The notes: generated by a model from the sequence alone, not told the origin. A DNA stretch of 64,000 nt from Candidatus Gottesmanbacteria bacterium (GCA_023245335.1 JAHFKK010000001.1:17918-81917), one strand, 5' to 3'; shown: positions 24,803-63,400, counted from the first letter of the stretch. Translations and numbers: made by a program.

Positions 24803-24820
24803 AAAAGAATATGCCCGTCA

Positions 24821-24850: not shown

Positions 24851-24857
24851 GCAGACA

Positions 24858-25526: not shown

Positions 25527-25530
25527 ATTC

Positions 25531-27233: not shown

Positions 27234-27245
27234 ACTACGCTTGAA

Positions 27246-28058
27246 ATGGGCACACCCGACAACCTACCAGGCAGAGAAGTATTTAACCGCGGGGCTCCAG
27301 GCTACAGCGAGCTCCATTATCATGTCCGTATAGACGCCATGACCCCTGAAGAAAAACTTGACTGGCTTTCGAGTCACATCCTGAAAGAAGAACATCGATT
27401 GTTACGGGAACCATATAACCTCCCGCAGGTGCGGAGAGAAGGAAAGGTTATGTTCCTCACGGGCGGGCCGAAAAGCGATGTCACCGAAGCCAGAGACTTT
27501 GAAGGCAACCTTATTCATACACGCCATCTGGATCATCCTCGGCCGATGTTCGCAGAGATTCCTGAAGCCCTCAATTCCATATCCCATTGGTTTGACCTCA
27601 ACACACAGAGCCAGGAACAAAACACACCCCCGCCATCTGTGGTCGCACCGCTTTCGGAAATATCGGATGTCGTCTATAACGTTTCGCATCTCCTCACCCT
27701 GGATCCCAGCTTCGGGGAGAATTATACCGAATATCTCAACCGCATCTCTGGGTCGCTGGGTTATTCCCTGGACCAACTGCTGACGCTTGCTGTTTACAAA
27801 TACAACTTTCGCCTGGGTCAGGGCAAATCCCAAAAAAATATTGCCGTCGAAAACAATATCCTTGAAAAGGTCATCTCCCAAAAAGGGGTTGACGGCAAAC
27901 TCCTCTATTCTCCGCCGACGGAGACACAGCTCCAAAAGACCTACCATACCCTCGCAGAAGTTCAGGGTCTTCTCAATACCCGACTTGAACAAATGCGTCA
28001 GGATTACGAATGGAACATAGAAAAAACCGCGAGAATCCCCTCGTCCCTCACCCCATAA
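27246..28058 (+). CDS. Hypothetical soluble protein
   Basis: 270-aa ORF filling the gap between membrane-protein genes. A strong sigma70-like promoter lies immediately upstream. No recognisable domain. Confidence 0.45.
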   Translation: MGTPDNLPGREVFNRGAPGYSELHYHVRIDAMTPEEKLDWLSSHILKEEHRLLREPYNLPQVRREGKVMFLTGGPKSDVTEARDFEGNLIHTRHLDHPRPMFAEIPEALNSISHWFDLNTQSQEQNTPPPSVVAPLSEISDVVYNVSHLLTLDPSFGENYTEYLNRISGSLGYSLDQLLTLAVYKYNFRLGQGKSQKNIAVENNILEKVISQKGVDGKLLYSPPTETQLQKTYHTLAEVQGLLNTRLEQMRQDYEWNIEKTARIPSSLTP

Positions 28059-28100
28059 CGTCCTCTCGATTCATCCCGCCATTTTCCGTATGATAGAGGC

Positions 28101-39400: not shown

Positions 39401-42400
39401 GGTACATTGATTCTCCACCGTGCCACTATCGTCCCCTTGTATGGTGCGACCGGTTCTGTCACACCGGTATAGAAGTTACTTGGGTTATACCCTTCTCCCT
39501 TTATTAAAATGGTAAAACTGGGATCTTCGGCGGCTAACGATATGTTTGAATACCCGAATAATCGTGCTTGTTCCGTGATTGCCAGTGGTGCATTTTTCAG
39601 TATAAGAAATCCGTTCAGTTCGAGAGTCCTTTGCGCCTCCGCCAAAATATCTGGAAGTGTCGCTATTGTTACATCCGAAGCGATCACTGCACCGACACTA
39701 TTATCGGGAAATGGTAAGTTTGTCCCGCTATCTACGAAATTCAATGGATGCGTGGCGCCAACAAAATCACCTAAAGCGGTTCCAGCATACGGACTTGATT
39801 TGGCGGGGACCATCTGGGAACTTGATACTGTCTTACTGAATCCTACGCCATCAACCGCTTGTCCGGTAATATCTATATACAGACCACGGGGCGGATGCAT
39901 GTTTGCTGCGAATTCCACAATATCCACTACATTCTGCGGTATCGTGAGTAGCGGTTGAATGAGAGTCTTCTCGACGGACATCGACGACACATTCAATACG
40001 CCTGTCGGCTGCGGCTTGGGCGGATTTTCTGTCACCAATACACCCTCCTCACGCGATGTATTGGTAAGATACCGCTGCATGGCGGCCATGAATATCGCTT
40101 TCACCCGAGCCTCATTTTCCGCATGCACTAATGGAGCACCGGGCGGCTCGTTGGCGGGATTCGCATACAGTACCGTAATCTCCAGATCTTCCGGATTGGT
40201 CATATCCAGCTTCCATGATCGGATGGTACCGCGAGTCGAGAAAGGATCCAAGAAGCTAAATACGCCGTCTCCGGACAGATTGTCTGCCACCATGCCCTGT
40301 ATAGTTTCCCGCCAGTCCGCCTGAGCTAAATCATTTTCCGCCGCGCCAAACGCCTCAGTGAACTGCGTCTGACCTATGAGACGGCCGTCTGAAACAATGC
40401 CGAGATCCTTTCCGACCACCGTCGCACGTACATCGTACGAGATCCCATCGCGCACTTGATATATTCCGGCAAGCGATCTCGAAATTTGATTGATCAGCGC
40501 CTGCGCTTCTTGCGGGCTACCGACAATCGTTAGCTCGAAATCTCCGCCTTTTCTGAGGATGTCATACCAGGCAGCCGACCCCGTCTCTCCCATGTGGTTA
40601 GCCACAGAAAGCCTATGAAACATCTCTTTGATAAACGCGTTCCCTGCCGCATCGCCATAGGTATCATTGATAAGCTTCAATATTCCCGGCACACTGACGT
40701 GGAGTAGATATACTGACTTCCCGTTTGACGAAGCCTTCGTGAGTCGGTCAGTTAACGTACGGAACGCATGATCGAGGTAGTCCTGACGGTAGAGAAACGA
40801 CTCCATGTTCTCCTGTGCGGCTTCGGTAAAAAGTACCGGATCAAGGAGTGCCTCCTCGATAAACAGCTCGTATTTCGTCCTCACTGCCCACGGTATTTTA
40901 TCCAGGGCGGCAAAAAAATCAGCAAGTTCCGGGTGTATGGCGATGACTCTACTCCGCTGTAGACCCGCAGGTAACGGCTCGCTACGGTCCAGTAGTTCGG
41001 CCCATTCGTCAGCGGCTCCCGGGAGCGCCCGTACACGGGCCTGGTCATAGGCTACCGTTCCGCCTTTGACACCATATAGGGCAAATACTCCGCGTAGTTT
41101 AGCGTTCAGCTCGCTCACAATATCCCCCAGTGGCGTACGCGAAACAATCGCTAACGTATCCCCGTTTACCCGTATATCCCAAGTCGTGAGATTGTGCGAT
41201 TTTTGCAAATCGATAATCGTTTGAGCAATGTCATGTATGAGGACATCTCCGGTGACGCCGTATGGCTTCGCCCCGGTTTGATTTGCGCTGTACACGTCTT
41301 TGATGTCGACGGTTGCCACATAGAAGTTTGCACGGACCAGGCGGGGGAAAACGAATGAGGAAAGTATAGAAATCGCATTTCTGACAGTGCCGAAATGCGA
41401 TAAGATGGTTTGTGTCCGGTCCGGAGTCGCTACGTTGCCGTTTTCCGTAATCCTTGGAGTCTTCGGAAATGTTGCACCGGCGATGTCACGATTCAATCCT
41501 GGATCCAAAAGCCGGTTGTTGGCAAATAGATTAAAAAAGTTTATTTGAGATACCGGCATACCCGCCAAATCTGTCTCAGGGTTGAGATAATAGAGTGTCT
41601 TGATGACATCTTTGACCGTCGGATCTAGGGGTGCTATTGGACCTCTCGCAGCCGGTGCGCCCGTGGGAAGCGGAATGTTTTCGGGCGCTTCCTGAACCGG
41701 TTGGACTCTGGGTTCAATACCAAATAGTGGATTAGTATATACTTTGAACCATTCTGTAGCCTTTTGTATCACTGTGTTAATCGCTACCGTTACGAATTGG
41801 GAGTTCGATAACGATTCAGGAGTGATGTCTTCCGCCGGACTCGTGTTTCCGTACCTTTCGTTCGGTAATATGACGATCGGCTCATTGAGATTAGGTATAT
41901 CTAATACATAGGTCTGGTCGTATATCGTAAACTCTGCCACGTATCGCCTCGTAAGACCTACGGCAACGGTCCGTAGCGTCGGCGCAAAGGTTGCCAGATA
42001 GGGATCCCGTTTCATCGCCGCCACAAGTGCAACCACACCGGCATCCCGCTGAGAAATAGTCCGGCTAACATCCGGTATCGCCCGAATCGCTCCACGAACA
42101 GCAGATTCGTTTGCTGCCAACTGACTAATCACTGCATCCCGCAGGCTATCCTGGTAATACGGTCCGATTTTCTGCTTCCAGACAGCTGCGGTCGGATAGT
42201 GACCGATCACGGAGTCTATAACCGGTATACCGTGCTCGTCCGCAAACGCATGCGTAGGAATTTGGTTTACGATATGATCCTGCCCGTTTTGGGTCGCGAA
42301 GATGCGCACCCGCTTCTGGGCAACCAAAGTGACCAGGGTGGTATCCCATTGGATGACCGGCTTATGTTGGAGGATGTCATACCACCGAAGCGTATACGGT

Positions 42401-45400
42401 ATATTCTGCTGATTCTGCCGGTGCACAAAATCCGCATCGGATACCGCCGGATCACGGGTAAGTCCGCTTAACCGGGTATCAACGATCAATTTATCTACCC
42501 CCAACAATTTTGCGAAAAATAAAAGCGGAACCCGTACTAATTCCGGAGTCTTAGAGTCATTGACGGTCCGATATGCCGTGCCTAACCAGGGTACGCGAGA
42601 CCACTTATCATCAAATGCCGTGATCGTATCCGGTCCCAGGAGATACGGCGATAACAAACTGAAGTCCGAATTCATGTCTTCTACTAGATTAGGGTTCGCC
42701 TTTGCGTACTCGAGGACTATTTGCGCGCCAGTCGAATGCCCCAGGAAACGAACCCGTGTTTTTCCGTTTCCGAATGCAAATGTCGCCTGATCAGCGCTAG
42801 TTGCGGTCAATGCTTTCATGAAGTCGTTAAATTGCCCAAGCATACGTTCGTATTGGTATGTACTCGATGTCCCGGCAAAACTTCCCTCTCCGCCGCCCAT
42901 GGTTGGTGCCACGGCTATCTGGCGAATTCCATCCGTCCCGTACGGCACAAGATCCTCGCTCATGGGTTCGGCAAATACCCTGCGGTCCGCCTGAAATCCA
43001 TGCTGGGCAACGATGACTTCCGTCGCCCGTTCTATGCGTGTCTGTGCTTCGTCACGAAGTTGGTCGGGAGATACGTCCGCAAGTCTCGATCGATCGCCCG
43101 GAGTCAGCTTCGCCATCCACAAAACCGGTGTGTATTTGGCGCCGTAAAATGATGGATTCTTCACGGGCTGATACCCGGAAACATACAACATATCGCCTTC
43201 TACCCGCGCTACCCCTACGAACTGATGTTTGGCATCACTCGGACCGGCTTTCACCGCCTGTGCTAGATCCTGTCCCAAGCGATCCGGCAAGTTGTACTGC
43301 CGTGCCGTCCACCACGTCCCGACATAAGTTGTAATCTGCTGTATGAGGGGGGTTACGCTGTTTAATGCTGCGGCAATCGACCCAAGCCACCCAGGTAACA
43401 CGTGAATAAAAGATGACGGTAACAAGCTCAGTGGTCCTTGATTTGATAAGTGAGAGGCCTTAAGCGGTGGATTAACTTCTGCAGGTTTTTCATCAACGCC
43501 GTTTAGATAGTTTAGATATTCAAGTTTTGGATACATGTGCTTACTTACGAAGTAATAGTTATCCTTATACGGCGCGTTATATAGAGCCGCCAAATTGATA
43601 TCGTTCGGAAAAACACTTTCCTGAGTAAACCGCAAAAGCCCCTGAACATCACCCGGTAATGTCTGCACTGGAGACGACAATAATTTGCCGTTCGCATCGC
43701 GGATGTTTATCCGCAGGCCATATGTGATAAAGGCTTGTGTGCGCAAAATACCAAAATTCACACTAACATCTGTTATTTCCGCAATGGGATATGCTCCATC
43801 CTGAAAGGTTGCACCACTCTTACTTTTATAACTTAGCCACGACCCGACACCCTCCGTATACTCTTTTACATTCCCATCTGGAGTAAGAGACAATACATTT
43901 TCAATGCCGGAGCTAATGGTGCGCACATCTGGTCGTGATTGGGCGTATGTCAATACTGCTCCCTGCAACAATTTCCCCAACCCGGCGTTGCGGGTGTCCG
44001 GAGAAACGTAAATAAATTGTGTATAAAGATCCGATTTTTCTTTGTTGTACTCTCCTCCAACAAATCCAAGGGCTTTTCCACTCAAATCAGATATAACTAA
44101 TGTAAAAAATCCTGGTTTCGCTTGGTCAACCCATTGTCTGACTTCTGTTAACTGAGCAAAGGCTTCCGGAACCTTTGCAGAAACGGTGACTCTGTATTGC
44201 CCGGAGGAGTCAGCCATAAACGTATTATTCAAAGGTACGGTCGGATTTATTACTGAAACCGCCTGCGGCGGCGGTTGGGATTGAGGCTCGATATTTTCCG
44301 TTACTGACAGTTGCGGCGTCTTTAGGTATTGCCGTATCGGCGAAAGCGCCTGTAGATTATCCTTGTGCTGGATGACATCTTCAAACCCCACGACATGACT
44401 ATTTAACCACTCGCGCACGGTCACCCCGTCCGGATAGCGTCCCCTATCTTCAAGTCCAAATCCACCAAGATGATTCCAGGCATCGGAAAGAATCCATTGC
44501 TTAAATAGCTCCGCATCTTTGCGTGTACCAACGATATAGAGCAGGTAATCCGGTGGAATAAAGGTCTGATTCAACTTTTCATCAGTCACTTGGATATCCG
44601 ACTCTGATACTCCCTCAGGCAAAACCGTGACAACGGCATATCCGTTGAAAAAATCTCCTGCTGAGGCACCGATTGTGGACTTGCCAAAACCACCTAGCCA
44701 TAGCGGCTCATGTTCATTGGTACGGAGCCCAAAATCTAAAATATTGCGCAGTCCCTGGGCAAATTCGCCTATATTAGTCGCATTTATCGTAACGGAATGA
44801 CCGTTAATTTCGGCGTTTTCCAATATTTGACGCACTTCTTCGCTCAAAGAGCGAAACGTACTATCTCTGATATTAGCCGTCATCGTTTTTTCTAAGGCCC
44901 GGTACCCTGCCGAGTCTATCCAATACGACTCGCCCTTTCCGTTCGATAAGGTTAGCGGATGCGCACGAAGTCCCGTGGTAAATCCGAGTTGACCATAGGT
45001 TGCTGACTGGGCTATCATCGGACTCAAATGGGTATATTGCAGCCCGCCAACCGTCATTTCTTGAGGATTGATAGAAGGATTGACATGCAGAAGTAATTTG
45101 CCAATCGTCGGTTGCTCTGTTGGACTCAGCGCCTGGACAATCGTCACTACTGGTGGATCTACCAACATTGCCGCAAACTTCCCCGTCGCAACAATTACGT
45201 CCCCGACTGCACAATCATTTAATCCTGCAACATTGTTTCCCTGTGCATAGACGGGAGGAATAAGCCTCATCGCACTCTCACCACAGGCTTTTTCCCGTAA
45301 TGCTTCCGCTTGCGTTGTGATTGTCTTCTTCGCAGGATCCGTGATCGGTGCATATACTGCTTTTAATGATTTATCCGTCTGGACAAGTGGTACGACAATC

Positions 45401-48400
45401 GCGCCGTTTCCGCGAACGAGTCCGAAATAGCGGTGCAACTCATTATTAATAACTCCGTTCGCCTGCCACCAGAATTTAGCCGTAACCACAATCCAATCCC
45501 AAATACTTGGCGCATTCGCTGGTATACTGCCTATCCCCCGCTGCAAATCAGGCGCTTGCTGGACTAAACGGGTGAGGTATTGAAGGTATCGCACCTGCTG
45601 CTGCCACAGCTTCCAGATGCGCGAGAACGTGTCAGATACACCATACGCAGCAAGATCTGCTATCGCATTTTGGTTTGCCTGTATGTGTTGCGTATTGGTG
45701 GCTTTAACCACCGCGTGCTTCAAGAGATTACCTGCGACCTGTGTGCGAAAAATAGCTTGCGGAAGGATATCCGGTTGCACTTTGACCGCTGCCCCACCAG
45801 TAAGTACCCCTGTGTCTGGCGCGATTACACTCGCGTAGGAAACATTACTTGCGACTGCGGGCGGATCAGCTTTATTCCGTAAAAATAGCGTCGTCCGAAT
45901 GGGCGCCACGACGGACTCAAAATTCGCCGCTGCCACAAGATACGTATGAGGTAGACCATCCGCATTCCTATTCGCCTCGGAAACTAGAAAGTATTTACCA
46001 GCCGGTAGGTTATATACGTTACTCTGCTCAAGATCGAGTACGTGTAAGACGGTAAACGTATGATTTAAATCTGCCATCCATCCCACATCGCCATCACGAA
46101 TATCATCAACAGAACCAAGCCGGTATGCATCGTTCGCACGCTGAGCCCCACTGAAAAGAATTTTTCCTGCCGTGCGCTTAAGGTAATTTATAACAATATC
46201 AATTTTGTTATCACCCTTCTTCGCTTGAGGGAATATTCCCTGTGCCTTATTTGCGTCATATATTGCAGCAAACATCCCCTTCGCATCAGGTCGCAACGGG
46301 TAATCGGTAATATTGCCGGCCATGTAGACCCCAGGAATAGTATTAAGAAGCTTGTCCCAATCGACACACTGAACTAATTGCGACACCGGTTGCTTATTGA
46401 CCGTCACAATTGTGTAATCGCTTTCAAGATCAAGCAATTTTGCCGTAAAGTCTGGATATTTCGCCTGATCCAAAAGATACGCCAATGGAGATCTGCTTAT
46501 CCGTGCCTGGAAGTAAAGCCGGAACGTCGTCCCATTATCCTTAGTCGTTATATCAGCACCGGATTGATACGCGTGAATTGTCTGCTGTATTTCGGGAAGT
46601 GATTTCTGACTGTAGTCCGTAACAAAAGATTCCAATGTAGTTATCGTCTTAACATCATCCGTACGGGCCGTCTGTGACGTAATAGTTATCATCTCAGACT
46701 GAGCGTCAGCTTTTGGATTCGTCCCTACGGGAACGGTATTTGGTGCGATTACAGACTGCGGGCTCGTTGTGTTCGCCACAGTTTGTTGCGGTGATCCAGG
46801 TGGAGTTGTAGCAATCGTAAAGGCATCTGCAGAAATTTTCTGCATTACCGGCACAATATCATTTACTTGCTCCTGCGAGCTAAATTTACTTAAAAACACC
46901 ATGATATATGCCCCGCCTTTCGGCAACCTCACGATAGCGATATCGTTTGCAGTATTGAGTCCTCCTTGTTCAAAGACGTACCCAATTTTATGCAACATTT
47001 GTGCTCGGACGCTTGCCGGCAGCGGCTCGCCGATCCACCATTTATCATCAGCGGTAGGCGTAGTTAACAACGTCGTGATATATCTGGTACTACTGTCCGA
47101 TATTCCGAGTGACTTATCGTAAAATTTCTCCAGCAATGTACCCACATCATCTGCAGTCATATATCGTGTTTGGATATCAATATGGGTTAGATTCCATTGC
47201 TGGAAAATTTTCTCCTGGGAAAATCCCGGCTGGAGCAATAAATACTGCAGTAACACCTGAGCAGCGGTGTCATCTGACCGAACTAAGGCGCGTTTCATGA
47301 GGTCAGCTGTCGTGCTGTTATTCCAGGACGGGTTATCAAACCACAATTTGTTATGTTCTGCTAAAAACTTTACCGGCCGTTGACTCAGGATCTGCTGATT
47401 CGTGAGACCCTGCTGCTCAAAAAACGAAAAGTACGCAATGACAAGAGGCCATTTAATGGTTGATGCACCATGAAAAGTTACATCGGAATTTATACGAACG
47501 GTATCCGCATCTGTTCCCCCTATCTTATGTATATAAACTCCGATATCACCCGGTAACGATGAGAGTTTGTTCAGAATAACTACCTGCTCTTTCCCATAGG
47601 AAAGCGGCATGGCGTCCAGACCTACCGTGACAGCCTGCTCATTATCGACAGGAACAGGAACATAAAATGCTTTAGCCCTGCTATCAGTTACAGATGTTTG
47701 TTCAGAATTTAACGTATCCGCTAATTTTCCAAAGGCTTTTGTCTGCAACTTGGTAACCAAATCTGTCACCTCTGCTGATTTCGGCAATACGGTAAATTGT
47801 CCCGTTAAGACCTGGTCAGTTGGTGCGTTGTGTGTAGGATCCGAAGAATACGCAAAATATTTGACCGGTGCTGTGTATTCATTTGGTGTATATAGGCCCG
47901 CAAACACGTTAGGAGCAAACATGTTTAGGATCGTCCCGTCGGAACGGAGTTGAAGTGCGTGCGCGTTCATATGCTCCCATGGCATAACATATCGCCATGC
48001 AACCTCCACCCCGGAATCATTTATAAATGGTATAACATTACCGGTAAACGTTCCGTTCTGCACTGCAAGTAAAGTCTCCTGTGACACATATAACTGTTCG
48101 TATGTACCATCGCCCGAAATTTGCAGGTCCGTCCAAGGCACAGAGTACGCAACCGTATAGTCAGCAGAAATTCCCGTTTCGGATACCGCCGGAAACAATA
48201 ATAGACTCGTCTGATTCGCAAGCGGAGCTCCTGAAGAATCTAGCCCCAATAATAACGGATGAAGCGTCCCCTGACGAAGAAACTCATGAGTAGAAATCCA
48301 CACCTCACGCATTGATGGTTTATAGATGCTTACCGGGAATATATCGTCTGTACCATCAGCGATATTGGGTAGATTGATGATTAACCGTATGTACGAAGGA

Positions 48401-51400
48401 AGGTTTAATGTTTCATTATTGACAGCTAACTTTTCCTGACCCAATCCGACCAGTTCCATTTTGCCGTCCCGAATTATGACAAACTTGCCTATCGAGACGT
48501 CTTTCCCGTTCTGATAATCAAATAGTTCATACACCGAACTCACGAATCCGGGCACGTCCTGATTAAATTGGTGCCAAGGGACACCGCTATTAGTTATGTC
48601 GTCTCGCCGCCGCATGAGAAGATTTCCATTCTGATCAACATACTCAAGCGGTTCGTAAAGCAGGATGGATTTATCCCATGTCGAAACATCCGCCTTATTT
48701 TGGGTAAGTCGCGTTCCCAAATCATCGATGGATGTGATTGTGGACACGTCAATATCTGCTGCTAGAGCCGGGTGATCGACGGTAGTGACTGTATTATTCT
48801 GACTGTCAAAACCGATAATTTTCCCGTCTCCATTAACGTACAGTGTAAATCCTTGATGATATACAGCGTAGAGAGTCTGATTAAGCCAGCTAAAGTTCGT
48901 CCGGTATGCATATAGGGATCCGGTCCGATCGAAACCAAATTTAGCCGCAATCGGATGGCGCTCGCTATTGTAGTAACCTAATTTTCCATCGATATCCATA
49001 AGCACTCCGGTTTGTAATTGACCTCCAGTGGCTTCTCGGAGCACGAACGGGGCAGAAGAACCAATGATTCGCTGCGATTTCCCATCCAGACCGTTAACGT
49101 CCTCATAAAATCCGGCGGATTCAGGGTAAAACATGGTACCCTGCAACTTTCCCTGTTGTGTTACTGCAAGTAATGATCCGTCCGCCTGGTTACGTTCGGC
49201 CGTTATATGATCAGTCTGTCCGTAGTCAAAATTATACGAACCGGTTTTGGCGTCATAGGAATAGGCCTTTCTCGCACCCACGATAGGCGATTTGCGTTCC
49301 GGTAGAGTTTGCACCATTGCAGGTCGAACTGAAAGACTCGGCGGCGGCTGATAATGCGTTCCCATTATCAAAAGAGCACTACCGACAACGAAAGACATCA
49401 CCATCATGCTTCCGACATACGAGATGAGACCAAAGCCGGTTACAATCATGAGCGTGAAATAGAAATTCCGGAGTGTTCGGTTTTGCAAAAACCATCCGTC
49501 CAGAAACTGATAGGCATGGAGCGCCTGCTGCCCGAATGTCGGACGCTGAGCGTTTACCGCATCATACGTCTGACGGAGCGTGCTATCGGAAAGCACAGCA
49601 TACGCCTCATCAAACACCCGCTGGTGATTCCGTACGCGGAAAAGTATGGTACGCACTAATCTGCTTATTGGTACTTGCCACTTGAATAGGTATACATCTT
49701 CAAATGCAAACGGTCGGTTCAAATTTTCCGACTGGTCTCGATAGGCGGTTTCGATTTCCGCGGTTGTTGCGTTAGGCCGCACACCTAGTTCACGATAATA
49801 ATCTCTAGACCGCGCTGAAATATGCGCTTCAAGCGTTACCCGATCGGGAATTTGTATGACTGCAACAGGTGTCGTGTCTGCACCGATACGGTACTCCAGA
49901 CGGTACCCTTCGTTACTATTGCCTCCAATATGTACCGCTATGGCTTTTTCGGCCGGACGCATCTGAAGTAATGCGACCGCTGGACTGATTTCTGCTGTCT
50001 GCCAAAAGTTTGCCCGGAACATTGTTGGAACCGGAAGCGATATCGCTTTTCTGTCAACCGTATTCACTGTCATTGCATTACCGACTTGTTTCGTTACCGG
50101 AGCGGACGTAATACCGTTTAATAAGAATGTTGCTAATACAGTCGCACGTTTTATTTCCGGAGTGAGGTCATCAGGCGTACGGACGCTTATAAGCAACCGG
50201 GTTAATACATTCGCTTCTTCTTCGGGGCTTCTGCCATCAATCACCCATTCGTCATATCTCGAACCCGAGAAGTCTCGGTTCCGCAACGCATCGACAACAT
50301 CATGGATCTGTGCCACCAAATCAGTATCTACGGAAATGTTTACGACATTCTGTACCTGATTGGTAATGATATCTGTAACTGATTCCTGAAATGCCGTGTC
50401 GGCAAAGACACTGGGCAACTGATGCAACCAGATATCCATGCGTTCATGGATAAGAGTCAGGGCGGCGTCTGTCTGATCGGTTCTTAATAGTTCAAATATT
50501 CTACTTCCTAACGGGTCGGACGGGTCGGTAAAGGCTATCCGCAGATTCCGAAACTCTCGTATAGACACGAGTGCGTCTGTCGAACTCATAGACCTCCACG
50601 CGGTTAGAAGCGTACTCTGTGCAGATCGAGGTAACCGATCCAAAGCCCATGCAAGTTCAGTTACCTGATCGGTTAAGGTCGCCTGAGCCGCATTTAATTG
50701 TGTTGTGTATGCTGACGGAGTCATTCTGGGAGCATACGAGAGAGCATTTTTTCCGCCGACATCGGTTACTCCCAGCTTCTGCCTGATCATGAGACTTAAT
50801 GCATTCGTCACGTGTAAAAGAGACTTACTCGACCCTTCACGCTCCTCCCAAATGCGCTTTTGTGCAAGACCAATCAGATCCGAATCAAGTCTCAACTGTT
50901 CTGTGACAATCGGGAAAAACCGTGATAATTCATTTGCTGTGGTTAGCTGATCCATCTGTATAGTGAGTGCACCGCTTCGATATTGATTAAAAAGCCACAC
51001 CGTATGTTCTGCGGCGACCAAGTTTGCTTCACCGGCCGGAATACCGGGGTGTGTGGTTTGGAGTCGAGCTTCAAAAAAGTTCACTATTGCATCTTGCGCA
51101 TTAGTAGAAAATAACTGCAGTATGTGTTCAAGTTCGGTATCGGAAATATTTCGGAGTTCCTGACGGTACGCGTAAAATCTTGTTGCTGCCTGCTCTATAC
51201 GGTTGAAGTGCTTCTTTGCACGGAGATTTATATTCGAAGCGGAAAATATACCTACAGAGATAAACGCGTCAGCGGGCAGCCGCTGCTTGATCTGGGCATA
51301 TTGCACCCGGTCATCAGAAGAAATAATTCCGAGGACGACCGCCTGTTCAATGCGGGGCGTAACGTTGGTATCCCATACGATCAGTTGTGTCATCGCCTGT

Positions 51401-54400
51401 GCCGCCATCGTACGCGCTGTTGTAGAAACCACATCACTGGCGCCCGACTGCCGCAGGCGGGAATCAGAACGCAGGATATTGGTTATTCCATCTTCTATGC
51501 CTCGTTCCAAAATTTGTTGATCAACATTCTTATTCAATAATGACTGAATAAGCTGATTTAGCTGTGTTGTGTGACTATTTAATATACCTGTTATGATACT
51601 GCTCACTGCAGGCGGCTCTCCTATAGACTGTGGTAGTTGATGTCCATTTACTAATTCATTCGCCAATTGATCAATGGCTATCCTTTTCTGTTGCGCTTGT
51701 TGTGCTTGTTGACGCGCAAGCGTTTCTGCTTCTTGTATCCGGGATTGTTCGGTAATATTGCGAAGACGCGCGACTAACGGATCAGTAACCGCGCGAGTCA
51801 CTGAGTATTGCTTGCCCATCGCAGTTAACCCTTCGGTTACCGCTTCTTCGAGATCAATAAATAAACTATTTGAAGTTTTTGGAACTGGTTGTGGACTTCT
51901 CATTCCTCCACCGCCGGGCCCTGCTCCGCCGCCTCCCTCCGCCCCTGGGCTACCATCATCATGATGTATTACTTCGATATCCTTTCGATCAGACGGGGTA
52001 GGTCCGTTATTGGTAAATACCACCACCTCGCCCGTAAGTAGTTTTTGTGGTTTTGTTATATCAATTGGTGCGCTGCCAAGGTCGTCAAATGCATAATATT
52101 TTTCGGTAAACAACCCGTCATACACGACAACCCGGCCATCCTGAAGCTCAAAAAGTTTGTACCGCAGTGGCATTAATTGCGGCGAGGCAACAAACGGTGA
52201 TCCTGCAGGACTTTCCATGAGCGCCGTGTGTGCACTCTGCACATCTTGCTTACGCATCTCCCGCGCCTGTTCTCCATTTATGAGCCACACGGATCCACCA
52301 GCGAAGTAGGAATCACTGTTGAGAATTTCTATTTTTTTCGGTTTTGTATAGACTGCACCACTTGCCCCCACCACCGCGTATATACTTCTTCCCTGTGCTA
52401 ATACCATCCCGGACGTGAGATAACGTGTGGTTCCAGAAGTTAAATCAAACAAGAATGAATATCCCACATCGTCCACAGTGGTTGTGTACACATCAAAACC
52501 AACGTCCCAAAGAGGAATAAGAGACCTATTTGGTAACGCCCGGTGAAACTGTTTATCTACGGAACTGTATACATATATAACGGGCCTTTTAATAATTGTG
52601 TTTGAAAAAATAATCTGGTGCGGTTCATCCGGCTGAATCACAATAGGTCCATTAACCTCAACCCCATCAACCATAACTTTACTTCCTATAAGAAAACCGA
52701 GATGAATTCCACCTGGCTGTATCGTTTCGTATATGGCGGTTTCCGGAAGAAATACTGCATTCTGAGGAACGGAGGATACATCGGAAATACGGTTTTGAAT
52801 TATGGTCAATACCTGCTTACCAACCGCATCAGTGTCCAAGACACTTAATTGTCCATTGTCTCTTCCGATGTTAGAGTCGCTACCACCCAGACCGGCATCT
52901 TGGATATATCCGCGCATTCGGCCGTACCGATCTACGTCCTCTATCGAAAAATTATCCGATGGCAAACCCACATCCCTATCGGGTTCTTGCACGTCAGTGC
53001 TTATGGCTTTAAACACAATAAACAGGGTGTCGGGATGTCCATTCCAATCAGCGTGTCCAAAACCGTAAATAGGAGTCTGTAAATCTCTGAACTCCGATAA
53101 ATATTGGTAGATTAATAATTCGACATCATTACCGCCGGTGCCCGTAATTGTGTGGGTTATCTCTCTAAACTTAATAATATAATCGGTATTTTCTACACGA
53201 TATACATACGGACGCGAAGACAGAGGTATTAACCTATGCCCCGCGTAAGTTATTGTGTCTGTCGCCGTATCAGTTACCAGCGATGTACTTACGTCCGGAA
53301 TTGTTGGAATCCAGGGAGTCGTTGCTGTTTTTCGGTCAGCGTTCGTTCCTCCCTCTCCGCCTGCCCCCGTTCCTCCACCGTCCGGTTTTGCCCCACCACC
53401 TTCCCCGCCCTGTTTCGGCAAGCCAAAAAGATACTCCCCGATTGTATGGGTAAGGGCAGCAAGTTCTGTATCGGAAATACCCAGATGATCCGGGGCTTGC
53501 TCATTGGTTTCCAGCTGTTGTTTGAGCGTCTGGTAGAGAAATGCTTGGACTGTGGGAGTAACGGTGTTATCAACTTTGGCGTCAGAGAGGGGCGCGTCGA
53601 GGAATCTCTGTAATGTGTCGGCTTGTATGTCTCTCAATGACGTATTTTTTTCTAGTGCCTCTATCGCCTTTTGTGTCGCGGAAAGAGTCTTGGGGACATC
53701 GGTGATGTTGGCAGAACCGATGATCCGGATATAGACAGGTATACGCGTGAGAAACTGCTGTACGGCGACATCCGCGGGCGTTCCCTTCACGCGGACATAT
53801 ATCGAGGAAATGGTATCCCGGATTGCTTTTCCGGCATCCTGACTGCCGAGTCGCATGACGAGTGCGACCGGCGGAATGGTGCTGACGCCTGCCTCAGACA
53901 TCGCTTTCAGCGTCGTATTCACGACTTGTCTAATTTGGGATTGTTGTTCGTCGGTCTTTAGACCCGTCGTGTTTACGATAAGGGTAGTGATTTGACTGGA
54001 AACTGTGTTGGGGCGTTCAAAAAAATTGGCAGGTTTTGCGGGCGTCCGGAGCCATAGATAGTGAGAGATCTCCTGAACTAACGGCTGAAATTCATCAGAG
54101 AAGATGCCGTACCGCTCTTGCAGTGCCGCGAGTGTCTCGGGATTTGATACCTGTAAATTCGTCTCGGTCGGGAATATCTGTCGGAGAAGCTCCGTGGTGA
54201 TTGCGGCTTCGTGTGCCGCGAGAAAATCCGCCTCTTCTTGACTTGCCGGCCGCACCCATCCGTCGTTTGCCTTTTCCAACGCCTCTAGAGCCAATAATTC
54301 CTGCCGCACAAAAGTCGGCACCTGGTCCGTGTGATCAACTCCTACAAGGAGTATTGTCCTGGTATAAAAAGCGAGTAACGCCTGCTGTGCCGGAAGGTTA

Positions 54401-57400
54401 TTTGCCAGTTGAGTTCTCTGTGCCGTCATGCGCTGCAATGGATTTACATCGTTTTGCGGGATCAGATATCCGTTCATCTCGTCCACCGTCATGTCGCGGT
54501 GTATACCTAACTCATCGGCCAGAATCTGCGCATTCCATTGGAAATCATCCAGGGTTTGTAACTGCTCGGGAGATGCGTTTGGAATGGGTTTCGGTGTTTC
54601 CTTCCCTATCCGGATCGGTGTGAGGGCGAGTTGGTTTGTGGAAGTTATGTTTACTCGGGCGACAACATCGCGTCCCAAAAGAATCTGCGTTCCGTCTCGT
54701 AGTATTCTTCCTTCCACGGGGACAACTATCAAAGGAAAATCCTCCATGCCGGGATATACTATCTGCGTGCTCGTTCCCGGACTGAGTTCCGCGTCATCTA
54801 CCATCCATGTCTTCGATTCGAGGTTAAAGTATATTACCGCGTGTTTTCCCAATACCGTTGGGATGGTTGCAGGATCAAACTGTATCGCATTATCTACATC
54901 CGTACCCAAACTAATCCAACTGCTCTTAGTAAAATGTTCAGTCGGATAAAACACCCGAACAGTTCCCACATTTACTGCAGCCGCGGTTTTCCCCTTCCCC
55001 GTCCGGCGCCAGACCCGGAATGCATTATCAGGTTCTTCCTTCACAAATCCCGCTGCTTGGTAAAATGCATTGAGCCGGGCCGATAAATCGACGAGGTTGT
55101 CGCCTGCTTTATATCCCGCCGGAGACGGTATGACGCGTACTCCCACACTCCCGGTATTGAGATTTTTGGCGGCTTCCAATAGGCGGGTACCGATATTTAC
55201 CCCCTGATAACTAGGATCCACAAACAGTACGCTTATCTCATCCAAATCGCCCGTAGGAGAAGTCTGTACCGCGACAAATCCGGCAACCGCACCGTTATAT
55301 TCGTCTCTTGCGATAAGGATCGCAGCGTTATTGAGTGATGCCGCCAACGGGAGATTCGTGATACCAGGATTTTCTTTTTGAACGCGCGCAAGCATCCCGA
55401 CGACGTCATCCGCTGTCCCTTGTTGTACCGTCACATCGACCGCAGTAAACAAGTTACGAAGTGGCGTGACCATGTCCAAATATTGTTGATCAGTGATGCT
55501 CTCGTCTCTCTGTAAATTATCGACTTCACGACCCAATTGGTTCACCCGGATTTGTCTCGCTGCAGCGCGCTCGGTGGCCGCACTCTTCGTATTGCCTACG
55601 CCGGTATATGCTTCCGCGAGCATTTGGTGGATATACATCTGGGCCGCAGAAAAGATGAGCGGGTTACTGTCCGTACGCTTGCCGTATTCCGCATTTACTG
55701 CCGTGAGCGTCGTCGTCAGATCCTGTATTGCCTGATCAAATTCTCCGTTGGCAAGCCGTGCGTCAATTGCCGAAAATTGTCGGATGAGGCTTGCGACATA
55801 CTTTCCGCAGTCGTCACAATTTTGGTAATATTCGTCCGGTTGACCATCCGAAGTTTTGGGAAGTATGGCTGCCCGTTGCAGCATCGCAACGATGACTGCG
55901 GTCAAAAATGACGGCTGCGACGGGGACTCCGGGATGCTCGCCGGGAGGTAGATAACCGGGCTATCCTCCTCCGGCATCATTTGAGCTACCTCACGGATAA
56001 TGTTCGCTTCACGCTGGGCGGCTGGATTTTTCCTGAGTATTGCCTCAAGCGTTTTGAGGTCCTGGAGGCCTCGTTGATAGTTCGCGGTACCGGGCTTCAT
56101 TAACGCTGACTCAAGTGACGTAAGGAATTCATGCATATTCTCGGTAGGCCCGACGGGAATACCGACTTGCGCAAGTGCAGTTGTCGCCTCTTTGATTGCC
56201 GCTCTCGTCTCTTGAGTATTCTCGAAAGGTGCCTCCACAGTCTCTACCGCGTTCACGATCACGCGGCGTACGCTCTGCACAAAATCCGGGGATTCTATGT
56301 GCTTGTTTTCCGACGCCAACGTATCCCGCACCAACTCCAATGCGCCTAAAAGTTTCGTGGCTGCCTGCGTATCGGTTATGGCATCCACCTGGCCTGTTAC
56401 CTCAGGACGCGTGAGGGCAAGAAACACCGAGAACACAGTAGGGTTAGTTTCCGGTATCGTGACGCCGGCATTGGTAAACGCCCGGACGACCTGACCCGTG
56501 AGCGTCCGTAGGTCTGCTTCACTCATATCCCCGCGTACAATATGGCCATTTATTATCGCCATTTCCCGTACCACTTCGAGCATCACGCTTTTTATCTGAT
56601 TAATTGCCGCAAGCAGCTCAAGCGTCACTGCAGCCGTCGTTTGAGGAGTAACGATGATAGGGGCTGGGCTTTCTTCTTCCGCAGCAAATTCACTTATTGT
56701 TGTCGTATTGTCTACGCTTACCGGGACTAAATGCAGCTGCTTTTCCAGATTATCTATCTCGACAGTTAGACTTTGTAACACGGCAGTGATACGACCAAGG
56801 GTAAATACGCTCTGTGCATCCGATTTATCCGCAAGACTGAGTTGATAATCGGATAGTATCGACGCTAATTCCTGAGTGACCTCCAACTCACTTATTGGCT
56901 CCAAACCTTGTGTCAGCTGCCGTACTACCGGATCTATGTCGGCGGCTATCGCGGGGTCAAAAGTGGCGCTTCCCATATCCGCCACCAACTGTGCTGCTAT
57001 GGATAGCAACTGTTGAACGGGTCGTTGCGGCAATGGATTCACTTCATTTTGGATAAACGATCCCACTATGTTTGCCTCATACTCGGAAGAGGCAACTACT
57101 TCAACCGATGCAACATGAGACAACATCGGTGCCACTTCTGCTATTGCGCGATACGTTGCTGCTAGACTGTCCGAAATATCGACTCCGCCTTTTCCGGATC
57201 CCATAATCGGCAATGCTATCGTCTGAACCCCTGCAGCATCCGCCTCCAAAAGGGCATTCTTTATGCTCTGATAAATCGTATCGGTAGTCATAGGTATACG
57301 GCCCGCATAGGTTGTATCTGGAATGTAGCCTGTCGCTATAGCCTGAATAATGTATTTAATTTTTGTCTGAGAAAAACCCCGAGCTATCTGCACTACTGCA

Positions 57401-60400
57401 GAACCTATATCAAACGGCCCGTGATTTTCCACAAGCGCAACCGCGTCTACTTGAGCCAAACTGACTGAATTCGCTGGAACAAGCCGGAGATTTGCGTATG
57501 CCGGGTGATTTTGCCAATATGAGTCCGCTGACGAAACGACTCCGGATGCACGGCTTATTCTTCCTGCAGTGCCCGATACCATTGCTAAAAAGTTATTTGC
57601 AGAATTAACGACAGCGTCAACGTCAGCTTTACCTATATTTCCTACCGCTACACCGATCTCAATAGGCGTCCCGTTCTGACGGGACAGTGAATGACTCAAG
57701 CGAACGACAGGAATCTTTTCATCAACCAGTATTTCCCATGCAGTCCGAAGCGCATTTTCTTTATCTTTAAGGGTAACCCCAGCTGGCAGCCGTCCTTCAA
57801 TTCGGCTTGCTACCTCTGCATCAACAGCAACCTGGGGCGCGTTCTTCCAACTGTCTTCCGAAATAACCGCTTTATATGTTTCATATACATCGCGAATAAT
57901 TGGATTTGTTAACTTATTTTGTATCGCATTAGCTGTTACAGGACCCGTTGGGATTTCTGTATCAAGCGTCAAGAGCATAGGATCCTGTAAATACGTTTCT
58001 ATATCGTGGCGTTCGGTCAGCAAACTCTGTAACTGCGTTTCAATTTCCCGAATGACAAATTTCGCTTGCTCTATCTTTGAAGTTAAACTTTGATCAATAC
58101 TCTTTATTTGATTTCGTAGCGCAATGACACGGGCGTCAGCCTGATCAACACTCCCTTGTATGTCGGCAAGTTGCTCTTCGGCTCTCCGCAAATCAGCTTC
58201 TGCTTTTGCCTGTTGTTGTACGAGATCAGTTTCATTACTTTGAACCGCCGCCACGACCTGCGTTCCTTGCTTATCAATACGTAGAAGGCTCATATCCCGC
58301 TCTCTCCTAGCGAGGTAACTGAAATACGTTATTTGTTCTTGCTCAAACGCATTCCTTCCTGCAAAATTCATCCAACTTCCATGATCCTGTGAGCCACGAT
58401 TCAATCCCATCTCCTGATTCAGCCGGATGACCTCTTCTGCTACTTGATTATCATCCATTCGATCCAATCTGACCGTCGGTAGACTATCCAACACGTGTGC
58501 CCCCGTCAAATATTTACGCAAATACACATGGAAATCATCTTTCTTCTCACCCGAATTTTGCGGCCCGTTATATACTATCTTTCTCCCGTATTTTGATGAC
58601 AGTTCTTCGGCGATAATCGTACCTATGCCGACAAACCGCCTGGAAGCGCGGAGTGCATTGCTTTTGTCATGGAGAAAATATGCGGCAGACTCACCCATGT
58701 ATTCAAGTGCAGTTTTCCCAGTCGAAGCTACTAAAATCTGTATATTATTCTGATGAGCTAATGATTGAATTTGTGCAAATTCTGCTCGTTGCGCTACAAA
58801 CTCTGGCACGATCATTGCGGAAATCGCCTCGGTAGGAACAATGGCAGAGGTTTCTCGTACGGTCAGATCTGCATTCAGACCCCGTAATTTCGCCATTGCT
58901 CTTATGCGGTCTTCGTACGTCTTAAGCTCATCAGGACGAACGCCGATATTAAGCTGGGCCCCTTTGTTTGGATCTATCTGCGCTTTACCGAGCCAGTCCA
59001 ACGATCGCTGGCGGGTAGCTTCGACGAGCGCCTTTGTCCCACGACTCAGGACGTCATTGAACCCGCCCCAAAGAGCTTCCGCTTTGGATCTGCCATTCAC
59101 ACCGGAAAGATCCAATACGTTCCATGGATGTTTTATCCCGGGCTTCCACTTATCTGACGTACCCGGCATGGTTACCTGATCATCAAAAACCGTCGCATCC
59201 AAACCTTTGCCAATAAGCGTGATGAACCCATAATCAGATCCGATGCCACCGACTTTAAAATTCACTCCCCGTTTGTAGTCATATGAATAAATAATTTTGC
59301 TTGTAAGAATTCCAAGCAAAGACTGTAAGTCAGTTCTGTGTGTCGGTAACACCAATGAAAAAATATTTGTTTCTTTGTCGTTTCTGAAGCTCTCTTCACG
59401 ATAGACTCTGGCCATTTCACGATTATATGTATCAAGAGTTTGATACAAACTCCGTTCTCGCGAACTTTTTGTTTGATCACGAAGATCCACATAATATTCC
59501 CGTAAGGCTTCGTGACGCGCAGCTAACAAATCACTACTTGTAGAAGACGTGAGTAACGCGTTATTTTTCTTCACACCGGCTATATCCGCTCTGTTTAAGG
59601 CATATAAAGCATTTATGTCGTCTTCTGAAGTAATGGATTTAGCAAAATCCTGGACATATCTTCTCCATGCCGCATCTACTGATTCTCCCGGTTTGGCGCC
59701 AAACACCTCCCGAGCTTTTTGTTCATCGGAATAATTTTTATAGACAGCGATATTCCCTAACACTTCATGATACTGAACGAGGAAAAGAATACGTTGTTGC
59801 CGATCCGAAGATACACTAAGCTCATCAAGAATCGTTTTTGTGAGTCTGGTTGATTCTACTACGTGATTCGGCTCCCTCCCTCGTTTTTGCGGATCAAGTC
59901 CTAATCTATTGGCCTCCTGTGCTCCTACTTTACCGATATCATGAAGTTGAGCAGCCAGTATGAGATCTTCTGCGTTGTATCCCTCGGGGATAATTAAATT
60001 CCTTACGACCGCATCCGTGTGGCCTCCGATCGTAAAGTCGTGAAAACTATGTTGCGCCTCATCTTTAATTTGGGCCCAACGACGTGCGTACGTCGGGGAA
60101 GTATTCAAAGCCGCTTGAGCGGCTGCCACATCAGTATCGGTAACTGGTCGCGTTGTGGGGATATCAGACCGCGCTCTCAATCCGCACGATACACAATCAA
60201 TCCGCTCCTTTAGTTGGGATAACTGGCTCGTAAATGCGCTTACGAGTTGTGACAATCTTGATTTATCCTTCTCAAGGAGGGCCTTTTGATCCTGTAGAGC
60301 TTTTTGCTGATTCACTTCGCTCAAAAGATCTCGCTCTAATTGTTGTTTCTGATTTGAACGTATCACTTGAGCTTCAAAATCACTCTGCTGTGTCTTCAAC

Positions 60401-63400
60401 CGTTGTAGTTCCTGCTGAGCCCATGTTTGTTTTCCTTTCACGGTTCCGAGGTTATTTTGCTCTTGGACAAGTAATAATTGCCGTATATCTATGACCATCT
60501 CATTGACCTGACGTACATATCCGGCTACCACGACAACTGGCTGGCTCTCTAAAAGTTTTGCTGCAGAAAATGCTTCACGCAGATTCTCCTGCTGTTTCTG
60601 TCGGATTTCCTGCATGAGACCCTGAACGACTATTTGGGCATTTTGGACATTAACTCCGACGCTTCGGGTATCAGGCGTTATTCTTAACGGCTGGCTTGAT
60701 GTAACTGCGGGCTGTGATGGATTAGTACGGCTAACAGGTCCTACTGGCTGTACAACGGGCTGTGGTTGTTGAGGTTGAGCCAATCTCGGAGCAAGTGAGG
60801 TATTTAATTCGTCTATCACCGCCAATGTTGCGCCCACATTGGACAGATTGGCAATCGATGAGCGAATGAGGGTCAAAGCTTCTGTAATGCGTCGTGCCTG
60901 ATCAGAAGTCATTTGATCAATAGGCGTCTCTTGTAGCTCGACAAGCGCGACTTCTACATCACTCCGTTCCTTCTCTGTCACATTCACCTGCGGTTGTTCA
61001 AACGCCAACCGTATCTGCTGAACTTTTTGATTGAGATCCGGCAGTGACGCAGTCTGTTGCGGCTGAGCAGTATTTACCCGTAGCACGTTTCCAATTTGTG
61101 ACTGAAGTTGTTGGGATTGACCGTTGCGGAAATACAATCCTGCCCGGACGCCGTCATTTATTGCCGTTGCGATCCAGTTTACCCAAGCGGGCATCACAAA
61201 CAGGACGCGCTGGGTGACATATCTCCCCCACGCCGCGCCGTCTTGTCCCGCAGGGATCTGGAAAAAGTCAACGATTCCCTGCAGGGCCGGAACCGCCGCG
61301 ATAGCTTTGGCTGTCTCCAGGTAGGAAGCAGGATTGTTTCTATACCATACCGCCTGAACAAGATCGAATCCGAATACAACGGGCAAACGGATAAACCACG
61401 GAATCAGCGTACCCAGATTAAGTACGATACGACTCGTCGCATACCGGGTGGCTCCCCGTGCCCCACGGCCGAGCGGTCCCCGTGATATGTCGGCGAGCCC
61501 CGCTCCGAATGACTGCGACGGCGCTACTGCCGGCGCAGCGGTTACGGCCGGTGGTGAAACCGGTCGGGCGCCGGGGGGCACGGGCGTTACGCCGAGCACG
61601 ACATCTCCCTGCTTCACCCAACCGACTTTTTGCCCGTCGGCACGAACTACATACCACTGCGAGTTTGCAGGGTTACTGTCCGGAGACCATAACTGCAGTG
61701 TCGCGTCATCGGCCTGTGCCACCCCGTGTTCATCCGTATAGATGACCCGGACGACGGAATTGTTTTTCATTTCCTGCCCTGCGTAGAGCGTTACCGTGTT
61801 GACCCCCAATTGATTGGCCGACAGTGCTTGCGGCGTTGTTGTCGATTGCGTCCGTGGCTGTCCGTAGAAATTCACTTTTCGGAATACCTGATTCTTGACC
61901 ACCTGGCGATAAATATTGAAGACCTCGATGGCTCCGACCACGATCGGACGGACAAAAATACCGCCGGGGATAAATGATGCCGCATACATCGGCAGCCGTG
62001 CCGCGGCAAATCGTCCAAGGGTACCGGGAACATTTGCTTCGGTATTCAAGAATACCGTATCCCCCACGCCCTTCAAGAAGTCCGACACGCCGCGCAGGAA
62101 GTTCGTAAACGCGTCATGTCTAGTGGAATCAATAATTCTCGGCAAAGAAATCGGAGAAGATCCCGACGCGCGAAATGCGTACATAACACCCTCGACCACC
62201 GCATGTCCCCCGTCAAAGATCAACGAGATTATAGATCCTCCGAACATCCGCAGCGCCGTCCGGCCGACATATCGCCCCACCCCGCGCCAGCCCTGACCCC
62301 AGAAAAACGCGTCCCACGTGTCATGAAATCCTTGCGAGAACGTCGTCGTCTGCGGGTTTATCGGACCAGCCGGTTGAGCGGAAGGAATCGTCGCGGCAAT
62401 CGGTGTCGCCGGTTTATACGTCCACTTCCATTTCCATGGCGTATAGGTTGACAGTGAAAATATCGCTTTGTATCCGCCGCCATTCGTGAAACGGGTTACG
62501 TCGTTATGAATCATCGGCCCACCGACGATGCTTCCGATTATGGACGCGGTAACCGCCGCGGGACCTATGCCGAGCCCTATCAACCGCAGAACCCATGAAC
62601 CGGTTCCCAAAAGCGCAATCGGCGCGAGAAATACATGAAGCGCCGGTATGAGACCCACTATGACTCCTGCTATCGTAATGAGTGCCGGGATGACGATGAC
62701 GGCAAACGTGACAAGCGTGGGAACGATATAGAGTCCCACTGCAACAGCCCGCGATATGAGGAATCCAACGGTGTTATTTTTGAGTGTGGCATTTACAAGC
62801 GCATTCGGGATAAATCCAAACGTTCTTCCTTCCATACTCCAGTAGTCCGGCAACTCGTACCCATGGGTGTGAAGCGGCGACGCCCTGCCGGATACGTGCT
62901 CTACGTAGTGCTGCCATACACGGAATCCGTCCCAGTAAAGTAACGTGTGATTCCCGATCCGGCTAAAGACATAGGAAACGGTACTAAAAAACGCCGATAT
63001 GGGATTCCATTGCGGATCTCCTATCCCTAAAAATCTCGCGTTCGCGATGTCTTCCACAAATCCTTTATCACTGCCCGCCAAAATATTTTTGAGTGTTTGT
63101 ACCGGTTGTCCGGAGGTATCTTTCGTCAAAAAGTCCGTATACTTGGTCGCGATAAAGCGCACCAACGGTAGGAAAAGCTTCTGAACGGGATGCGTGGCGC
63201 TATTTCTGGCCATACTGTCTGCGACCGTCTGAAAATCAAGTAACATGAGGTTTTGGAACCATACGGCTCGTGCCAATCTATACGGGATGGCTTCGGCGAC
63301 AATCCGGACCAAATCAATGCCGGCTATGGTAAGCGTCACGGGAAGTCCCGCGCCGGGAATAGCAAGCGGCGCTGCATACCGAAGAACCGCACTGACAATA

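Follow-up and report, generated by a model that had tools for sequence, protein, structure and literature searches.

The 64,000-nucleotide stretch of a Candidatus Gottesmanbacteria genome considered in this study (GCA_023245335.1 JAHFKK010000001.1:17918-81917, hereafter the window) raises the question of what an HD domain and a macro domain are doing within a single giant protein of 10,150 residues. An earlier note, made from the sequence alone, had regarded the two domains as a pair that processes ADP-ribosyl or nucleotide signals, an activity typical of anti-defense or host-manipulation effectors. The results presented here place the HD and macro domains at the two ends of one rare conserved cassette of approximately 1,100 residues, in which a third domain, termed X, stands between them. 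The three domains almost certainly work together; the explanation favored here, held with slightly less than even confidence, is that the cassette cleaves or removes a nucleotide-type ligand in the cytoplasm. By sequence comparison, the novelty would lie in the architecture with its one family-less domain, X, the HD and macro domains being members of well-known superfamilies.

The HD domain, the macro domain and domain X

The strings from which both domains had been recognized were confirmed within one open reading frame (ORF). The HD strings are HTDAVVRN (residues 1296-1303) and LHDIGK (residues 1321-1326; 59929..59946, minus strand), and the macro strings, of which the first starts 778 residues after the HD motif, are VVNSANNFLAMVSGTAGRI (residues 2099-2117; 57556..57612) and IALPIMGSGKGGVD (residues 2230-2243; 57178..57219).

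For the HD domain of the window, Pfam PF01966 gave 22.2 bits against a cut-off of 22 when a 311-residue fragment was searched and 18.1 bits when a 3000-residue piece was searched, and a single-sequence phmmer search of the PDB sequences returned no relative. The assignment is settled because the relatives score far better than the window sequence: the HD domain of the L087 ortholog reached 32.0 bits with the same Pfam model (E 1.6e-7), and the HD family profile aligned with E. coli GlnD over its HD domain (residues 452-639) at an hhalign probability of 94.6% (E 7e-8, 171 columns). The NCBIfam models for GlnD and for the actinobacterial CCA-adding enzymes (TIGR02692) also ranked among the best HD hits. 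Additional matches of the seven-sequence HD profile in the PDB were to the HD-GYP protein 4mcw (E 1.7e-3) and to the cGAMP phosphodiesterase 5z7c (E 0.014), and a weak match to Cas3-HD came from PADLOC. The HD-GYP motif HHExxDGxGYP is absent, the window reading QYHEVLGNIAVYK and the relatives HHDWLGDL, with no GYP in either. On sequence comparison, this is a divergent yet genuine HD domain that is nearest to the GlnD/CCA-enzyme type.

Seven residues of the HD domain (H1289, H1296, H1322, D1323, H1348, H1380 and D1441) are invariant in the seven aligned relatives, and six of them (H1296, H1322-D1323, H1348, H1380 and D1441) make up the H…HD…D motif of metal ligands together with the additional His residues that two-metal members have. 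The pattern H…HD…H…H…D is that of two-metal HD phosphodiesterases. Both the significant profile hit and the retention of the His/Asp metal ligands across the seven relatives agree with the HD assignment that had been made from the window alone. In the AlphaFold2 (AF2) model, the HD part is predicted with confidence to be all-helical.

Two side observations concern this domain and its surroundings. A 948-residue protein from the Logan assemblies (P0007), a B12-binding radical-SAM protein, carries a C-terminal HD domain of the same subtype at 31% identity and with all seven invariant residues; the radical-SAM protein is therefore an alternative partner for this HD type. Directly upstream of the HD domain, the helical lead-in contains the CxxC motif DCVSCG (residues 1237-1242; 60181-60198, minus strand), for which the L084 counterpart is GCLSCA, and a second CxxC, NCDDCG, lies at residues 2696-2701 (55804-55821). 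Neither motif alone could make a zinc site because each has only two Cys, and the entire giant protein contains 11.

The macro domain was matched more strongly. Pfam PF01661, for which the gathering cut-off is 22, gave 37.3 bits (E 3.1e-9; orthologs 37.5-38.6 bits), the NCBIfam model 'ADP-ribose-binding protein' gave 3e-13, and the Thermus protein TTHA0132 (PDB 2dx6) was matched at 5.9e-9 when the single sequence was used and at 1e-16 when the query was a family profile of four sequences. After 2dx6, the profile matched macroH2A1.1 (1e-10), MacroD-type domains, PARP14 and Af1521, and hhalign against E. coli YmdB gave a probability of 91.5%. The macro assignment of the earlier note is upheld by these matches. 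In the YmdB alignment, which bears on the catalytic residues that the note had proposed to check, N2104 (the second Asn of the NAAN motif) falls on N25, A2114 on D35 and G2240 on Y126, the last two YmdB residues presumably being the catalytic Asp and aromatic residue of the MacroD type. Both loops are present, the first as S2111-G2112-x-A2114 and the second as G2236-S-G-K-G-G2241, where GSGKGG aligns with STGVYG of YmdB. N2104, S2111, G2112 and A2114 are invariant in the four aligned cassette macro sequences, and the position of G2240 is Gly in all three that reach it. By this alignment, the macro domain keeps the ADP-ribose-binding Asn and both Gly-rich loops and lacks the MacroD catalytic Asp and aromatic residue. 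Additionally, at the position of the adenine-contacting Asp ('GDIT'), the giant-protein forms have Asn and the operon forms Asp, and an insertion lies between loop 1 and the core sheet. A single-sequence AF2 model of the macro domain had a mean predicted local distance difference test score (pLDDT) of 45, too low to use.

Domain X separates the HD domain from the linker and macro domain, and the two domains first described as a pair are in fact members of a trio. It had no match in Pfam (E <= 1), NCBIfam, PADLOC, PHROGs or the PDB sequences. Its invariant polar residues include T1522, H1523, R1524, S1541, R1546, N1549, Y1559, K1592, H1593, N1596, K1608, Q1651, N1653, R1657, E1660, R1667 and E1693. 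The AF2 model of HD and X (residues 1274-1876, from the seven-sequence alignment) had a pLDDT of 77.7 and a predicted template modeling score of 0.82; in it, the two domains are modeled as one compact body with X packed against HD, and a low-confidence stretch at model residues ~297-380 (pLDDT 41-69) lies in the first half of X. A Foldseek search with this model returned weak hits only, mostly due to the HD part.

Three known enzyme types were compared with the X region by hhalign and rejected. The X profile gave a probability of 0.07% against E. coli KptA, as a KptA-like or other ADP-ribosyltransferase (ART), and of 0.16% against GlnD, as a nucleotidyltransferase or ACT domain. HD-X as a RelA/SpoT-like hydrolase-synthetase gave 1.2% against E. 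coli SpoT.

Table 1. Positions of the cassette parts and of the other features recognized in the giant protein
Feature	Nucleotides in the window	Residues	Strand	Basis or remark
Giant ORF	33454..63906		minus	10,150 residues; holds HD, X, macro and all other parts
Helical lead-in	60088..60360	1183-1273	minus	Conserved with giant orthologs L084 and L087; CxxC pair C1238/C1241
HD domain	59407..60087	1274-1500	minus	Pfam PF01966, hhalign, family profile
Domain X	58279..59373	1512-1876 (~365 residues)	minus	Predicted alpha/beta, then helices, in the model; fused to HD in all relatives
Coiled-coil-like linker	57664..58278	1877-2081	minus	Pfam matches to coiled-coil families only
Macro domain	57037..57663	2082-2290	minus	Pfam PF01661, NCBIfam, PDB profile match
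GNAT acetyltransferase domain 1	55003..55461 (Pfam match 55042-55329)	2816-2968 (Pfam match 2860-2955)	minus	Pfam; kept in L084 and L087
GNAT domain 2	43915-44151	6586-6664	minus	Pfam
Partial DnaJ J-domain match	49726-49803	4702-4727	minus	First 26 model positions only; 25.4 bits, below cut-off
Beta-lactamase-like domain	46894-47535	5458-5671	minus	Pfam Beta-lactamase2, 65 bits, E 8e-18
Weak GGDEF match		7716-7770	minus	Pfam
Weak M32 zincin match		9744-9790	minus	Pfam

Relatives of the cassette and the linkage of its parts

When 1.84 billion representative proteins were searched exhaustively with phmmer, only 38 hits were returned, mostly ordinary small macro proteins. Three proteins of approximately 800-860 residues matched residues 1274-1876 of the giant protein, HD and X together, at 36-41% identity, and a fragment of a further giant (P0004, whose cluster mate P0040 has 4,652 residues) matched X, the coiled coil and the macro domain (residues 1533-2281) at 37%. 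By this search, the cassette is known from approximately six lineages, all of one Microgenomates-type clade within the candidate phyla radiation (CPR), with its parts in the order CxxC lead-in, HD, X, coiled coil and macro domain. The giant-protein form occurs in the window, in L084 (with its strain variant L088) and in L087, and the two-gene form, HD-X followed by macro, in L081, L082 and L083/L090. A macro domain or a remnant of one lies downstream of HD-X in every related locus that has downstream sequence. A scan of the GTDB genomes with the cassette segment gave no hits, nor did a word-indexed protein search with a 1,071-residue segment and an HD-X alignment. The latter negatives are tool misses, because the exhaustive search found relatives in the same collection; the word-indexed search missed even query sequences that were cluster representatives and is unreliable for this family. 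Neither the HD-X-macro cassette nor its embedding in a CPR giant protein was returned by Pfam, NCBIfam, PADLOC, PHROGs, the PDB sequences or the term-searched literature.

Among the giant-protein forms, L087 carries HD, X, coiled coil and macro domain in one uninterrupted frame (40% identity to the window over 1,210 columns), and L084 carries them in one frame once a scaffold gap is allowed for. A frameshift between HD and X in L084 was considered and rejected, the break being an N-run scaffold gap. Detectable conservation between the window protein and L084 is limited to residues 1187-2287 and the GNAT domain at residues 2816-2968, and the tblastn match with L087 is limited to residues 1183-2281, with Pfam recognizing HD, macro and then GNAT downstream on L087. 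The GNAT domain is therefore the sole segment conserved outside the cassette in L084 and L087, always downstream of macro, and its membership in the cassette is uncertain. Conservation across the related giants is limited to the HD-X-macro block and this GNAT domain, which indicates in which part these proteins, impossible to align elsewhere, have their function.

The rest of each giant differs. The L087 frame is open over the whole 21,034 nucleotides of its locus (1-21034; 7,011 codons) and runs off both ends, and upstream of its HD domain are two features missing from the window protein, a P-loop motif (LTGSGKS) and DUF7790. The giants can for this reason be described as mosaics around the same cassette. 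In L084, the ORF after the cassette ORF (19370-29308) contains a right-handed beta-helix/NosD-like region (Pfam, E 3e-5 to 9e-5), a typical extracellular fold with no counterpart in the window protein.

Among the two-gene forms, L081, a Woesebacteria metagenome-assembled genome by its GroEL and ribonucleotide reductase (RNR) clusters, encodes an HD-X protein of 856 residues and a macro protein of 298 residues, and the macro start codon overlaps the HD-X stop, which is consistent with co-translation. L082 has the same gene order, with the contig ending inside its macro gene. The sequences of L083 and L090 are identical, HD-X being followed by a 54-residue ORF that matches the macro N-terminus; in L083 this ORF (9021-9185) is cut short by a stop codon with no continuation in other frames before the contig end, for which either gene decay or a fault of assembly may be responsible. 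In L081 (2852-14810) and L090 (1471-10815), the standalone unit lies directly downstream of nrdR and the class II RNR gene, and in these two lineages it adjoins nrdR, the class II RNR gene, tsaD, yidC and groEL. The RNR proteins of the two are 76% identical, a protein of approximately 105 residues just before HD-X is 31% identical, and the large proteins between RNR and HD-X (1322 residues vs. 284 and 1067 residues) have no detectable mutual similarity. By sequence inspection, the standalone HD-X and macro proteins have no hydrophobic leader at their start. Additionally, the 445-residue protein that follows macro in L081 (13473-14810) resembles the N-terminal helical region of HD-X (26% over ~150 residues, E 2.6e-5), which suggests a duplicated lead-in module.

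Combined, three giant fusions and three genomes with adjacent genes support the earlier proposal that the HD and macro domains act together. The opposite view, that HD-X and macro occupy a mosaic protein independently of each other and owe their adjacency to common descent alone, would agree with the small number of lineages (approximately six, in one CPR clade), with the ~200-residue coiled coil that parts HD-X from macro in the giants and with the truncated macro ORF of L083. Against it, the adjacency outlasts both the change between fused and separate genes and a sequence divergence of 60-65%, the flanking thousands of residues diverge past detection over the same distance, and the overlapping start and stop codons in L081 fit co-translation. 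An absence of any functional link is judged improbable.

Activity proposed for the cassette

In the explanation favored here, the macro domain would capture a ligand or adduct that contains ADP-ribose, and the HD-X body would cleave a phosphodiester in the bound ligand or in whatever the ligand is attached to, with HD working through a two-metal center that the H…HD…H…H…D residues would coordinate. The cassette would in this way remove or degrade nucleotide-type groups (ADP-ribose or nucleoside monophosphate) on the cytoplasmic side. The removal of nucleotide groups is proposed because the HD domain has its nearest counterpart in GlnD, whose HD domain is nucleotidyl-removing, and the cytoplasmic location because no leader peptide is seen on the standalone proteins, which lie among housekeeping genes. 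With respect to the ADP-ribosyl or nucleotide processing put forward in the earlier note, ligand binding by the macro domain is better supported than hydrolysis because the MacroD catalytic Asp and Tyr/Phe are absent.

Several observations weigh against this explanation. X matches no fold or family, which makes the central part of the mechanism a guess, and the HD domain of the window is borderline by Pfam, clearing the cut-off by just 0.2 bits. As judged from the alignments, the macro domain, being devoid of the MacroD catalytic pair, may merely bind its ligand or may bind a ligand other than ADP-ribose, and Asn replaces the adenine-contacting Asp in the giant-protein forms. The giant protein also has a beta-lactamase-like domain, normally extracytoplasmic, and the co-occurrence of the cassette parts may partly reflect the shared ancestry of approximately six lineages and not repeated selection.

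The resemblance of the HD domain to the HD domains of CCA-adding enzymes (weak matches to TIGR02692 and the PDB 3wfp family) would also suit a role in RNA-end processing that parallels the route of KptA, 2H phosphoesterase and macro domain. HD would then be a cyclic phosphodiesterase acting on a 2'-phosphate or cyclic phosphate end, and macro an ADP-ribose-1''-phosphate phosphatase; macro domains are known to process ADP-ribose-1''-phosphate from the KptA-2H system (PMC9503650). No KptA, RNA ligase, RtcB or 2H domain was detected and every supporting match is weak, making this role highly improbable.

A different possibility is suggested by the order of the invariant residues in X. The AF2 model of X opens with a strand (T-H1523-R1524-T), a helix (GILxS), a strand (…S1541), a loop, Y1559-G and a strand, and the invariant E1693 falls in a later hairpin. 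H-Y-E and R-S-E are the residue layouts of ARTs, and the order of the X residues matches them. X could on these grounds be a very divergent ART-fold enzyme whose modification is reversed or limited by the macro domain, as in DarT/DarG, with HD adding a third processing step. The macro gene that overlaps the HD-X stop has the usual toxin-then-immunity layout, and Foldseek aligned yeast Tpt1 (7yw4) at a probability of 0.92, but over 41 columns and with an E of 0.9. On the other side, X matches no ART family in Pfam, NCBIfam or PADLOC, the hhalign comparison with KptA cited above was negative, the fold search was without significance, the model is of low confidence over the first half of X, and a writer and eraser fused in one giant protein would run a futile cycle. 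Such a writer-and-eraser arrangement is considered distinctly unlikely.

A broader version of the same idea, which is unlikely, would make X a new catalytic domain, possibly of a very divergent ART-like fold, and HD-X-macro a self-contained CPR system for modification and demodification with NAD+/ADP-ribose, ancestrally a small operon that was repeatedly built into giant membrane-anchored mosaics at the host interface.

Returning to the favored explanation, the two-gene form (856 and 298 residues) provides a small, soluble and expressible surrogate for biochemistry. Should ADP-ribose or nucleotide adducts prove to be its targets, the cassette would be the first system of this kind to be described in CPR bacteria, and X as a new partner domain, together with a GlnD-type HD domain, would be added to the known associations of macro domains. 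If it is instead a housekeeping unit of nucleotide salvage, the gain would be a modest one of annotation.

The giant protein, its setting and known systems

The giant protein is non-repetitive, with no internal repeats at E <= 1e-3, and has hydrophobic segments resembling transmembrane (TM) segments at residues 186-846, 4817-4851 and 10084-10108. The second of these begins approximately 100 residues past the partial DnaJ match. The Beta-lactamase2 match is the top-scoring Pfam hit of the entire ORF (Table 1). CPR genomes are approximately 1 Mb in size, and the giant gene would then be approximately 3% of the DNA; a small-genome bacterium of this kind spends approximately 30 kb on this one gene.

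Apart from the giant gene, the window is made up of genes for glycan enzymes of the cell envelope. Among the encoded proteins are GT2 and GT4 glycosyltransferases, two DegT aminotransferases, Wzy_C, two PMT_2 proteins, YfhO, PIG-L, an NPCBM protein and an RmlC-like protein, and a scan of the window for tRNA and Rfam families returned no features. The genes that neighbor the giant gene are closest to those of CPR/Patescibacteria (Woesebacteria-like). For one PMT_2 protein (15945-17600), the relatives number in the hundreds, those with names being from Candidatus Woesebacteria (64% identity), Patescibacteria and Gottesmanbacteria, and a related contig has glycan genes in the same order as the window. 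A neighboring DegT protein has matches at approximately 50% identity spread over many phyla in the GTDB genomes and says nothing on the taxonomy. From the glycan-gene neighbors, the PMT_2 relatives and the matching order in the related contig, the window is assigned to the chromosome of a Microgenomates-type CPR bacterium and not to a phage, as judged by its gene content.

This setting bears on the effector role put forward in the earlier note, for which no contextual support was obtained. Under that reading, the giant protein would be delivered to or displayed toward a host cell or phage, and HD and macro would destroy immune signals derived from ADP-ribose or cyclic nucleotides or would reverse ADP-ribosylation. 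CPR bacteria live attached to other cells and their large membrane proteins have been proposed to serve in host contact (PMC8080830), the giant protein, in which enzyme domains (HD, macro, two GNAT, beta-lactamase-like, weak GGDEF and zincin) form a mosaic free of repeats, resembles the polyvalent proteins (PMC5512222), the remainder of it evolves too fast to be aligned with its orthologs, and phosphodiesterases of cGAMP and c-di-GMP are weakly matched by the HD profile. Conversely, the standalone form has no leader peptide and adjoins the housekeeping genes named above, the neighbors in the window are glycan-synthesis genes with no mobile element, no relatives were found in the phage and viral collections INPHARED and IMG/VR, and the similarity in PADLOC is generic only (Cas3-HD, DarG and ThsA-macro). 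An effector role is therefore regarded as unlikely overall, though it may apply to the giant-protein forms.

Compared with known systems, the cassette shares parts with several and its full arrangement with none of those considered here. The FHxxT…H, HDIxK, H, H and ADI motifs of GlnD and the CCA enzymes align with the cassette HD domain; unlike GlnD, the cassette is devoid of a nucleotidyltransferase or ACT domain, its HD partners being X and macro, and no Pfam or NCBIfam match lies around the HD domain. TTHA0132 (2dx6) and macroH2A1.1 are the best macro matches and share the loop patterns 'NxxNN.L.xG.G.AG' and 'P.xG.G.GG', whereas the cassette macro domain has the insertion between loop 1 and the core sheet, has Asn for Asp in the giant forms and sits in a giant multidomain protein. 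The MacroD hydrolases (YmdB, human MacroD1/2 and Af1521) are recognized as the same fold family, and the equivalent of YmdB N25 is invariant, but the cassette has Ala at YmdB D35 and Gly at Y126.

DarT-DarG pairs likewise have a macro gene directly downstream of, and overlapping, a larger enzyme gene, and the PADLOC similarity to DarG is weak (E 0.004-0.006); they differ in that no DarT or other ART was detected in the cassette by Pfam or PADLOC, an HD domain is present and the parts are fused in three lineages. The Thoeris ThsA macro models gave E 0.003-0.04 only, and unlike in Thoeris there is no TIR gene in any of the loci.

At the level of the whole protein, polyvalent proteins, which are products of mobile elements with 2-15 domains each (PMC5512222), similarly combine many unrelated enzymatic domains in one polypeptide, the overlap being the beta-lactamase/DD-peptidase-like domain and the weak GGDEF and zincin matches. 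The window protein differs in its length of 10,150 residues, its chromosomal location beside glycan-synthesis genes and its TM-like segments, and Pfam detected none of the hallmark domains LPD, MuF and ArdC-N in it. The giant membrane proteins of CPR bacteria and Omnitrophota (PMC8080830; bioRxiv 10.1101/2023.11.21.568195) offer the other comparison. A term search of the latter source found no HD domain and no macro domain. Those giants are, like the window protein, very large and membrane-anchored in a small-genome host, with GNAT domains also occurring among them, but they are dominated by adhesion, carbohydrate-binding or repeat domains, whereas the window protein is non-repetitive.

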